Shown: positions 23,763-26,019 of the stretch, one piece after another | Numbering within the stretch: position 1 is the first letter of the stretch | How the letters are laid out: the number at the start of each line of letters is the position of its first letter | DNA from: Candidatus Dadabacteria bacterium | GTDB lineage: Bacteria > Desulfobacterota_D > UBA1144 > Nemesobacterales > CSP1-2 | Direction of reading: 5' to 3' | DNA length: 64,000 nt | Assembly: GCA_963805855.1 (NCBI GenBank) | Contig: CAWDVW010000007.1 | Location: 128,001 to 192,000, forward strand | The notes under the pieces: generated by a model | Databases searched by the model: none | Seen by the model: the letters and a program-made list of their open reading frames with translations, nothing else | Told to the model about the DNA's origin: nothing | Program-made: the position numbers and the translations under genes

Positions 23763-24127
23763 ACGATGGATATGCAGGATATTTAAAGAGCTATGCGGAA
23801 CTCAGGCGCTCTGTCATCCTCCCGGCCCTGGAGAAGATAAGGGGCGAATTAGAACAAGATGGTTGGTATTGCTTCATAGCCGACTTAAACCCCTTTGATA
23901 AGATCGAAGGTATTACCCCGCGAATACCTGATAGATATGGCTTTACTTCACTGTCAATAATGGATATCGAGAACGGGATAGTCCAATATGTTTTTGTGTT
24001 TTTAGAAAACCACAGGGTAAGGCTTACGTCCGACGTATTTGAAGAAGATAAAGGTGTTTTCTTAGATTTAACCGAGGTCTCCCTTAATTCGGTCGAAGAG
24101 ACAGTAAAAATGATAATAAATCGTTAA
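23759..24127 (+). CDS. Hypothetical protein
   Basis: Start overlaps the yjbQ stop (GTGA) with GAGG upstream; 122 aa. Confidence 0.55.
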   Translation: MNDGYAGYLKSYAELRRSVILPALEKIRGELEQDGWYCFIADLNPFDKIEGITPRIPDRYGFTSLSIMDIENGIVQYVFVFLENHRVRLTSDVFEEDKGVFLDLTEVSLNSVEETVKMIINR

Positions 24128-24332
24128 TGGACTTCACTGAATCTTTTTTCGAAATGACCGAAAGTTTTTACTTTTCGACGGCACGAATAATCAAGATCTT
24201 GCACCTATCCAGATCAAACTGAGCGTGTCGAAGTGTCTCCGCTGAGCCCGTCGAGGTATGAAAAATCATAAGCTATCTTATCCTTCGACGCGTCTGTACT
24301 GAGGAATTATGTTAAAAAGGGGTTAGGTACAG

Positions 24333-24380
24333 ACGGTTCCCTTCTTATAATTAAAAGGAAAAAAATAAGGAGGGAACCGT
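24333..24380 (+). promoter_or_regulatory. Hairpin sequestering the transposase RBS
   Basis: ACGGTTCCCTTCTTAT (24333-24348) pairs with ATAAGGAGGGAACCGT (24365-24380), which ends just before ATG 24382. Confidence 0.7.
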
Positions 24381-24381
24381 A

Positions 24382-25446
24382 ATGAATAGACAAAGTATAG
24401 ATTACACAAATCAAGATTTTTTTCTAGGCATAGATGTGCATAAGAAGAGCTGGAAAGTAACGGTGAGGACTAACGGCATGGAGTTAAAGACTTTCTCCAT
24501 GGATCCATCACCGGAGCAACTGTACGGATATATGCACAAGCGTTATCCGGGAGGAAACTATCACAGTGTGTATGAAGCAGGATTCTGTGGGTACTGGATT
24601 GATCGGGAGTTAAAGAGGTACGGGTTTAACAATATAGTAATCAATCCGGCAGATGTGCCTAGTACCCAGAAGGAGAAATCGACAAAGACCGACAAGGTGG
24701 ATAGCCGTAAGCTGGCACGAGAGCTAGAGAATGGGTCATTGAGAGGGATATATGTACCGGATGAATTTCACCAACAATTGCGATCATTGTGCAGGCTGAG
24801 ATTTAAGGTGGTACAGTCGCAAACTCGGCTTAAGAATCGGATCAAGGGGTATTTAGCATTCTATGGTTATGTCATACCGCGCCATGATGAGATTGGTCAC
24901 TGGTCTGGGGGATTTATAAGGTGGTTAAAGACATTAGAGTTTTCATACGGGATGGGTAGGGATTATCTTAGGCTATGTCTCGAGGAGCTAGAAAGTCATC
25001 GAAGGCGTTTAGCAGAGGTAGTGAAGTTGGTGCGGAAGTATTATCGGGAATACGGGTTTGGGGAAGAGGTAAAGAATCTGCGTAGTGTGCCAGGGGTTGG
25101 TTTTGTAACAGCGATGACATTATATGGGGAACTGATGGATATGAGTCGGTTCAGGAGTATAGACGATCTTGCTAGTTATGCGGGGTTAGTGCCATCGGTA
25201 AGTAGTTCTGGGGAGAGGGAGAGCACTCTGGGGCTCAGCTTTCGGCGTAACCGGTATTTACGGTACTTACTGATAGAGGCAGCGTGGGTAGCGATACGAG
25301 AAGATCCGGCTTTGGGGCATGTGTTTAGTCAATTGATCAGGCGGATGACCAAGCAGAAAGCGATAGTTCGGATCGCCAAGAAGTTATTGAACAGGATAAG
25401 ATACGTGTGGAAGAATAAGGAGAGTTATGCTTATGGATTGATTTGA
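24382..25446 (+). CDS. IS110 family transposase/recombinase (DEDD RuvC-like + Tnp20 domain)
   Basis: LGIDVHK, YEAG, KTDKVDS, SVPGVG, GLVPSVSSSGE and LLIEAAW motifs. Confidence 0.95.
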   Translation: MNRQSIDYTNQDFFLGIDVHKKSWKVTVRTNGMELKTFSMDPSPEQLYGYMHKRYPGGNYHSVYEAGFCGYWIDRELKRYGFNNIVINPADVPSTQKEKSTKTDKVDSRKLARELENGSLRGIYVPDEFHQQLRSLCRLRFKVVQSQTRLKNRIKGYLAFYGYVIPRHDEIGHWSGGFIRWLKTLEFSYGMGRDYLRLCLEELESHRRRLAEVVKLVRKYYREYGFGEEVKNLRSVPGVGFVTAMTLYGELMDMSRFRSIDDLASYAGLVPSVSSSGERESTLGLSFRRNRYLRYLLIEAAWVAIREDPALGHVFSQLIRRMTKQKAIVRIAKKLLNRIRYVWKNKESYAYGLI

Positions 25447-25724
25447 TAAGTAATAGGGACTGGATCTATGAAATCTCAAACAATAAAGTGTGGACCGCTA
25501 TCGACTGGCTGCAAAGAAAATGTTTTACTGAGAGTGCGGCCACAGGTTTGAGTGGTTTAATGAATTTAATGCAGCACTGCAAAGAGGCAGCTGACTGTTT
25601 ATAACAGATTGATTCAAGATAGGATTTATTTACACATGAGATACATTACATAAAAAAGCACGAAGGGATTCGTTTGTTCAAAGTTAAAGTTTTCCCTAAC
25701 ATAACCCTTGACTTTTTACATAAC
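25447..25724 (+). ncRNA. Putative bridge/seek guide RNA of the IS110 element
   Basis: Two modules CTGCAAAGA..TGTTT-[7 nt]-A with 7-mers TACTGAG (25526-25532, equals target flank plus core) and ATAACAG (25601-25607, equals element right end plus core). RNA ends not determined. Confidence 0.7.
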
Positions 25725-25842
25725 AGCCTGTCGAACTGCCTGTGATGAGTGAAATCAAACGCCTAGGACGCACGGTCTACGATAAAATCATGATATTTAA
25801 GTAGTGAAAATGCGTAAAAGACGTAAACGTCACGTATGCAGG

Positions 25843-26019
25843 TTATTCGTCCTCTATGTGGGCCTTTACCATTTCCAATAATTCAGGTGTCGGTTCCATA
25901 CCGTGGTCCTTTGCGTGGACTTTGGCCTGTTCCAGCACTTCTTCCTCGGTCTCTCCGCGGATAACGTGATTACATTCCGAACTCGGGTTTACCTTATTGC
26001 ATTGTATTATTTTGCCCAT
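25843..26019 (-). CDS. DUF1059 family small metal-binding protein
   Basis: GGAGG RBS; C..V.P..C.HVIRGETEEEVL..AKVHAKDHG pattern. Confidence 0.8.
   Translation of the reverse strand: MGKIIQCNKVNPSSECNHVIRGETEEEVLEQAKVHAKDHGMEPTPELLEMVKAHIEDE

Follow-up and report, generated by a model that had tools for sequence, protein, structure and literature searches.

The window analysed here is a stretch of 64,000 nucleotides from Candidatus Dadabacteria bacterium, and all features given below lie on its plus strand. Positions 24304-25726 are occupied by a 1423-bp insertion sequence of the IS110 family and the IS1111 type. The genome carries three near-identical copies of this element, each inside a REP-like repeat in which (T/C)ACTG-AG stands before and CC(T/A)GTCGAA after the insertion. 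Copies 1 and 2 are identical at 1423/1423 bp, and copy 3 differs at four positions. In the window, the element is preceded by the left target half TACTG and the core AG (24297-24303; CACTG-AG in copies 2 and 3) and followed by the right target half CCTGTCGAA (25727-25735; CCAGTCGAA in copy 2), a part of the REP-like repeat that is also present elsewhere in the genome. The flanks thus read ...TACTGAG and CCTGTCGAA... in copy 1, ...CACTGAG and CCAGTCGAA... in copy 2, and ...CACTGAG and CCTGTCGAA... in copy 3. On comparing the junctions of the three copies, which lie in related sites, it was found that only AG is common to both, as in site-specific insertion that duplicates none of the target except a short core. 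Because AG is present at both junctions, the core is AG, as had been proposed in an earlier note on this DNA, and for the same reason each boundary of the element is ambiguous by 2 nt. The core of IS621 is CT. Within these boundaries, a single gene leaves a 5' non-coding region of 78 nt (24304-24381) and a 3' non-coding region of 280 nt (25447-25726); such a long non-coding region downstream of tnp is found in the IS1111 group.

The gene (24382-25446) encodes a transposase/recombinase of 354 amino acids with a DEDD domain and a Transposase_20 domain. The two Pfam models PF01548 (DEDD_Tnp_IS110) and PF02371 (Transposase_20) scored 61.4 bits (cutoff 29) and 80.5 bits (cutoff 21.3), respectively, and the NCBIfam model NF033542, named 'IS110 family RNA-guided transposase', scored 216.8 bits against a cutoff of 140. 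The residues D18, E65, D104, D107 and S276 were invariant in six homologs; they are putative equivalents of the catalytic residues of IS621. In a search of PDB sequences at E <= 0.001, the sole match was ISCro4 (9t56), in the C-terminal domain and with an E value of 3.9e-5; IS621 gave no match. The IS1111 motif GL-P----S(T)G is present as GLVPSVSSSG, with G268, L269, P271, S276 and G277 invariant in six homologs. This C-terminal motif is given, together with other features of the IS1111 group, in the report on seekRNAs (Siddiquee et al. 2024; PMC11187229).

Both ends of the element are conserved in homologs. The left subterminal inverted repeat, TTATGTTAAAAAG, lies at 24307-24319 and contains TATGTT (24308-24313), and the right end (25708-25726) consists of TTGACT (25708-25713), the right subterminal repeat (25712-25723) and the terminal AAC-AG. 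The two repeats form the inverted repeat I9, in which 24307-24317 and 25713-25723 are 91% complementary over 11 nt, beginning 3 nt inward of each end. With one indel allowed, I9 can be followed in the sequence over 12-13 nt, and it is within the IS1111-group range of 7-17 bp. By analogy with related elements, it is proposed that TTGACT and TATGTT may act as the -35 and -10 boxes, at 17-nt spacing, of a promoter formed at the circle junction. A scan of the plus strand inside the integrated element for sigma-70-like promoters found no site. Upstream of the gene, a hairpin in the 5' UTR (24333-24380; inverted repeat I1, 16 nt, 94% complementary) buries the ribosome-binding site AAGGAGG directly before the ATG, and equivalent hairpins are visible in homologs. 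A hairpin placed over the ribosome-binding site is the usual guard against expression by read-through.

The earlier note had read a guide RNA with two specificities in the 3' non-coding region. All strings on which that reading was based are present where it had placed them: CTGCAAAGA at 25509-25517 and 25577-25585, TGTTT at 25521-25525 and 25596-25600, TACTGAG at 25526-25532 and 24297-24303, ATAACAG at 25601-25607 and 25720-25726, GTGCGGCCAC at 25534-25543 and ACAGGTT at 25542-25548. In the window, 7 occurrences of TACTGAG compare with 5.5 expected, and for ATAACAG the count is 5 where 8.2 are expected. Since these 7-mers are not rare, the sequence by itself is suggestive only, and a comparison with homologs is needed. 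A scan of species genomes yielded 11 loci, and a scan of metagenomes the best 80 of 557 confirmed relatives; the homologs show 44-64% protein identity and come from MAGs labelled Bacteroidota, Ignavibacteria and Calditrichota. The 3'-end motif TGAC(T/C)G(T/C)TNATAACAG was found in 74 of 92 sources (the window and 91 loci), many of the other 18 being truncated contigs. The scaffold begins with a stem strand, GACCG(C/T)T, a variable segment of 9-10 nt, a (C)TGC hairpin, TT and a variable segment of 5 nt followed by AG. It continues with A(T/C)TGCGGC and its stem strand, an AT-rich spacer, a variable segment of 4-6 nt, TGCAGC, a variable hairpin, TGACTGTTN, ATAACAG and TGATT... The claim of the earlier note that an IS110-family element carries its guide RNA in the 3' non-coding end, the arrangement of IS1111, is supported.

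RNA structure was studied on a MAFFT alignment of 44 sequences, to which all the pairing figures for P1, P2 and P3 refer. The target-binding arm (25489-25544) is closed by stem P1, in which 25489-25493 and 25495-25498 pair with 25536-25544 and A25494 is bulged; 98.0% of the cells are paired and both sides have changed in seven of the nine pairs. At the distal end of this arm lies the stem-loop P2 (25511-25523), which has just 3 bp in this element (GCA/TGT) and is longer in the majority of homologs; 86.1% of its cells are paired and four of its five pairs are compensatory. The donor-side arm P3 (25571-25598) is formed by GCAG(C) at 25571-25575 with (G)..CTGT at 25593-25598 and, further in, by CTGC at 25577-25580 with GCAG at 25587-25590. 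P3a is 100% paired with compensatory change in 3/4 pairs, and P3b is 77.7% paired with compensatory change in 4/4; the sequence of the P3 hairpin is different in each homolog. For the structure as a whole, 0/500 shuffles reached the observed value, and slid controls were 35-48% paired. RNAalifold, used unguided, recovered P1, P2 and P3a (19 pairs, 15 of them compensatory).

A further helix, P0 (25460-25479 with 25609-25622), is formed by the stretch upstream of P1 and the bases directly after the left donor guide. Its cognate duplex energy over 59 loci was -17.37 kcal/mol, against a permuted mean of -9.88 kcal/mol (sd 0.43), and this was reached in 0/5000 permutations. With the whole RNA closed by P0, the donor guides are placed in a three-way junction; judged from the ends of P0, the bridge or seek RNA would extend from 25460 to 25622, i.e. 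over about 163 nt. Folding of the single sequences 25447-25726 and 25490-25680 was no better than that of shuffles (z = 0.09 and -0.18, respectively), the comparative structure in the window has an energy of -25.1 kcal/mol vs an MFE of -38.4 kcal/mol, and a search of 24000-26000 with Rfam 15 returned 0 matches at E <= 1.

Two other pairings were considered and rejected. A pseudoknot between CTGCA (25509-25513) and TGCAG (25570-25574) was 90% paired, but both sides had changed in only one of its five pairs. Because each of the two strands has a better compensatory partner, in P2 and P3a, the TGCA pairing is explained as a motif shared by two homologous modules. What these modules truly have in common is the series guide-(CT)-(T)GCA...TGT-T(N)-guide; in module 2, GCAG 25571-25574 with CTGT 25595-25598 corresponds to CTGCA...TGT. 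A helix termed 'P4', in which the spacer behind P1 would pair with the bases behind the left donor guide, was 56.6% paired in a fixed register, with no diagonal above the shuffled maximum; its duplex energy was -2.91 against -2.56, 352/5000 permutations were as low, and it is superseded by P0. A 53-aa reading frame (25443-25604) runs across helices in which the variation consists of compensatory changes and of indels of various sizes.

Each target guide was compared with the DNA that flanks the element in the homologs. The left target guide, TACTGAG (25526-25532), consists of 5 nt and the core AG and has the same sequence as the left flank's top strand. For the test it was defined as the 7 nt that end 2 nt before TGCGGC, and 42 of 47 non-redundant loci were used, those having AG in both places; L012, L037, L041, L045 and L066, which were mis-anchored or had another dinucleotide, were left out. 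At the five positions before the core, 156/210 matches to the cognate left flank were counted, against a permuted mean of 59.9 (sd 6.6, max 89), and 0/10000 permutations reached the observed value. Identity per position (-7 to -3) was 0.50-0.90 for cognate and 0.23-0.31 for non-cognate pairs, and over all 47 loci the mean match was 4.00/7 vs 1.93. The assignment of TACTGAG as the left target guide, made in the earlier note from its identity to the flank, is thus upheld by the homologs.

The right target guide is TCGACTGGCT (25501-25510), the reverse complement of the core and the right flank, on the 3' side of an adjoining GACCGYT. Over 49 loci, the longest exact run against the cognate flank averaged 7.31, vs 3.61 for non-cognate flanks, and runs of at least 6 were seen in 40/49 loci, compared with about 4% of the non-cognate pairs. 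The pattern TCGACWGGCT occurs 2 times in the window against 0.18 expected. The fit of TCGACTGGCT is 10/10 in copy 2 and 9/10 in copies 1 and 3, and in no copy is the pair of target guides perfect, the left guide matching at 7/7 in copy 1 (right 9/10) and at 6/7 in copy 2 (right 10/10). The segment 25501-25510, which is complementary to the top strand, lies 5' of 25526-25532, which is complementary to the bottom strand, and this order was constant across the aligned homologs. According to the seekRNA report, the same order holds in IS1111 seekRNAs and is reversed in IS110-type elements (PMC11187229).

Some of the homologs depart from the common pattern. In L010, the transposase gene is frameshifted (31 stops in the expected frame, longest ORF 207 aa); the RNA scaffold of its 3' end and the guide-flank matches are intact, with the right target guide at 10/10. 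In L059, L073, L077, L080 and L082, the sequence at the right junction is ...ATAAC-AA, and TT instead of CT stands at the end of the right target guide. The left junction and the left guides of these loci retain AG, and hence the two sides of the core disagree.

On the donor side, the left guide is ATAACAG (25601-25607), identical to the right end and core at 25720-25726. Both the guide and the right end are almost invariant among homologs and, for this reason, the assignment, already made in the earlier note, rests mainly on identity; the related loci L045 and L060 have ATAATAG in both places. In L050, L077 and L080, a variant left donor guide is not mirrored by the right end as delimited. 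The right donor guide, which had not been identified before, is AAUUU (25563-25567), adjoining TGCAG on the 5' side of the latter and pairing, with one G-U, with GAATT (24304-24308) at the left end. When its four variable positions, which are complementary to the first four bases of the left end, were compared with the complement of the cognate left end in 39 non-redundant loci, 135/156 agreed, against 77.2 in permutations (sd 5.1, max 98), and 0/10000 permutations reached the observed value; L020, L022 and L045 were left out of this test as they offered no anchor. In the present element, the right donor guide has a 5-nt pairing only, the core complement CT being replaced by AA; CT is found at this place in roughly half of the homologs. 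Covariation with the DNA partner is thus shown for three of the four guides.

The covariation between guides and flanks or ends that the earlier note had named as a check was found for the left target guide, the left donor guide being almost invariant, and was absent for (AC)AGGTT, the segment that had been taken for the right target guide. That segment had been set into an arrangement of two tandem copies of one scaffold (CTGCAAAGA...TGTTT, a 7-mer and an A), downstream of a GTG-CGGC-CAC hairpin. Although all of these strings are present and ACAGGTT can pair with AGCCTGT with one G-U, the arrangement is hardly credible: runs at the site downstream of GCGGCCAC average 3.04 for cognate vs 2.94 for non-cognate flanks and reach at least 6 in 1/49 loci, GCGGCCAC pairs with the upstream GTGG(A)CCGC (98% of cells paired, 7/9 pairs compensatory), and the second CTGCAAAGA lies in P3, which is different in each homolog. 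The alignment supports P1, P2 and P3a by compensatory change and gives no such support to the proposed hairpin, which is absent in homologs; GTG-CGGC-CAC is not a hairpin because it forms the 3' strand of the covarying P1 and pairs with 25489-25498. As to the duplication, the homology of TGTTT followed by a 7-mer is real in both modules, but the second CTGCAAAGA is coincidental and, lying in a variable hairpin, does not make a duplicated scaffold; nor is the A after the second 7-mer conserved in homologs. The reading of guides from a single sequence was thus right for the 'identity' guides (left target and left donor) and wrong for the 'complementary' ones, of which the right target guide had been misplaced and the right donor guide is AAUUU.

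RNA data were considered as well. A small share of the stretch is represented in four RNA runs, and in the three metatranscriptome runs that were examined (X17-X19) contigs cover only 24725-25325 of the open reading frame, along with one 31-nt piece beyond the right end. At depths of 2-3, no contig in X17-X19 covers the non-coding region, which is uninformative either way with regard to a small RNA. A 151-nt contig from the RNA library X17 links 24844 to 25730, skipping 885 nt, with 31 nt on its short side and three differences; it could represent a derivative with a deletion, a relative or a chimera of the assembly.

Taken together, these results make it very probable that this IS1111-type element carries, in its 3' non-coding end, the gene for a bispecific bridge (seek) RNA of about 160 nt, with helix P0, a three-way junction, four guides and the mechanism outlined below. 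Two further alternatives have to be weighed against it. The RNA gene could be a relic, with the element either immobile or moved by the RNA of another element; the reduction of P2 to 3 bp, the short right donor guide without core complement and the 0 unoccupied perfect targets in the genome would fit this. Yet two of the copies show no difference over 1423 bp and the third shows 4, the reading frame is intact and all helices and guides are retained. The absence of CT from the right donor guide is, moreover, shared by about half of the homologs, and a relic is considered quite improbable.

A role of the conserved 3' end as DNA, through subterminal protein-binding sites or as an internal copy of the right end, would make the matches to the flanks incidental. 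The flanks, however, lie outside the element and vary between homologs, and two internal segments nevertheless track them; four helices, furthermore, stay paired through changes on both sides, G-U pairs included, on the plus strand. The subterminal inverted repeats, the repetition of ATAACAG 113 nt inside the end and the lack of RNA contigs over the non-coding region agree with a DNA function, whereas the IS1111/IS110 family has been found experimentally to be RNA-guided (PMC11187229; PMC11208160). Such a function therefore has very little to commend it, and the bridge RNA is retained as the preferred explanation.

In the bridge RNA as proposed, P0 would enclose a three-way junction whose arms are the target-binding module and hairpin P3. 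The target module would consist of P1, an internal loop and the short P2, with TCGACTGGCT on the 5' side of the loop and TACTGAG on its 3' side. Of these, TCGACTGGCT is expected to pair with the top strand of AG+CC(A/T)GTCGA, and TACTGAG with the bottom strand of TACTG+AG. The donor guides would flank P3 in the junction: AAUUU, upstream, could pair with the first bases of the left end, and AUAACAG, downstream, with the right end and core on the bottom strand. Transcription, processing, protein binding, circle formation and strand exchange would then follow the published mechanism of the family. The element would be excised as a circle, in which the ends abut as ...ACATAAC-AG-GAATTATG..., and the abutted ends would create the promoter TTGACT-17 nt-TATGTT, from which the transposase gene and the RNA behind it may be transcribed. 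The DEDD/serine recombinase would bind the RNA, and the RNA would bridge the circle junction and the REP-like target, pairing with both strands of each. The strands would be exchanged at the AG core, and nothing of the target outside it would be duplicated. The element would represent a pair of the programmable recombinase-RNA kind, in line with what the earlier note had suggested.

The features of this element can be compared with those of known systems. The IS1111 seekRNAs of ISEc11, ISPa11, ISKpn4 and ISPst6 (Siddiquee et al. 2024; PMC11187229) are alike in the location of the RNA in a long non-coding region downstream of tnp, the guide order, the subterminal inverted repeats, the GL-P----SG motif, the REP-type targets (ISPa11) and a sole evident promoter formed at the circle junction, which is a prediction in the present case. 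Their long forms measure about 150-170 nt, compared with the approximately 163 nt proposed here. The sequence is unrelated as far as this can be tested (no Rfam match), and the core, the ends and the target differ. The host lineage differs too, the relatives of the present element being found in MAGs of Bacteroidota, Ignavibacteria and Calditrichota. The seekRNAs have been tested experimentally; the guide RNA of the present element is a prediction from sequence.

The bridge RNA of IS621, of the IS110 group, shares the two target and two donor guides and the 2-nt core (Durrant et al. 2024, PMC11208160; Hiraizumi et al. 2024, PMC11208158). IS621 is also alike in that left guides match and right guides complement the top strand, and in the DEDD and serine recombinase. 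In IS621, the RNA lies in the left end upstream of the gene, the left guides are placed 5' of the right guides and both pairs of guides lie in simple internal loops. In the present element, by contrast, the RNA lies in the right end, the right guides come first, the donor guides are in a three-way junction and the core is AG. Likeness is also seen to the predicted bridge RNAs of the IS1111 group (including ISCARN28, ISAzs32 and ISPa11, of six in Extended Data Fig. 10 of PMC11208160), which are located in the right end and have the nucleotides that may bind the donor placed within a multi-loop rather than in a simple internal loop. They were obtained as consensus predictions from ISfinder entries, with inspection by hand, and an RNA was predicted for 93% of IS1111 elements. 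By every feature testable here, the element is, as far as its sequence indicates, a member of the IS1111 seekRNAs or IS1111-group bridge RNAs. The RNA class is already known, having been described in 2024, and the NCBIfam annotation already names an RNA-guided transposase.

Outside the guide RNA proper, a distal stretch of the 3' non-coding region (25660-25706) is complementary to the arm of the 5' UTR (24319-24344) that covers the ribosome-binding site. The duplex of the two has an energy of -28.1 kcal/mol in the window, G-U pairs included. Over 49 loci, the cognate mean was -16.32 kcal/mol vs -13.96 kcal/mol in permutations (sd 0.44), 0/5000 being as low, and the complementarity persists in homologs despite their differing sequences. 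It could be an RNA switch acting on translation, or else a longer inverted repeat at the DNA level; were the former true, it would tie translation of the transposase to a full-length transcript that also carries the guide RNA. In a DNA run from salt marsh (X2), two contigs link 25615 to 25707 via 37 other letters and diverge from the window at 25724; they belong to a related element elsewhere with a much shorter spacer between guide RNA and right end, and the spacer 25616-25706 is hence variable.

What would set this element and its relatives apart is put forward with considerable reserve, as it is rather unlikely to amount to a novelty: they might constitute an uncharacterised clade of IS1111-like bridge recombinases (in MAGs of Bacteroidota, Ignavibacteria and Calditrichota), far from the solved structures. 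The distinguishing properties would be a compact layout, in which asymmetric target guides (8+2 and 5+2 nt) are combined with an AG core and the donor guides are placed in a three-way junction, as well as the complementarity, conserved and covarying, of the 5' UTR arm over the ribosome-binding site to the distal 3' non-coding region. No new question is opened by the finding. Its practical value is that all four guides, as well as the helices, are mapped for a clade in which dozens of relatives have been retargeted in nature; this clade can serve as a natural reprogramming table for a recombinase that is only remotely related to IS621 and ISCro4.

The target itself is a REP-like repeat. A search of the genome with the joined flanks gave 0 sites at 0 mismatches and 26 sites at up to 2 mismatches, vs 12 for a control pattern, and many of the sites at up to 2 mismatches are flanked by short inverted repeats. 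One of the 2-mismatch hits, L108, lies in what is presumably the 3' part of a 16S rRNA gene, and is probably a chance match. In a genome of the same genus (G002), an uninterrupted target, CACTGAGCCTGTCGAAG, was found in the orthologous intergenic region; the flanking genes are present and the repeat is intact, but the intergenic region is differently arranged and does not offer a strict empty site. In the window, the intergenic region around the element (24218-24232, 24249-24262 and the insertion site) contains several REP-like units ...CTGAGC(C/G)(T/C)GTCGA(A/G)... between short inverted repeats, and the same family of REP-like repeats is dispersed across the genome.
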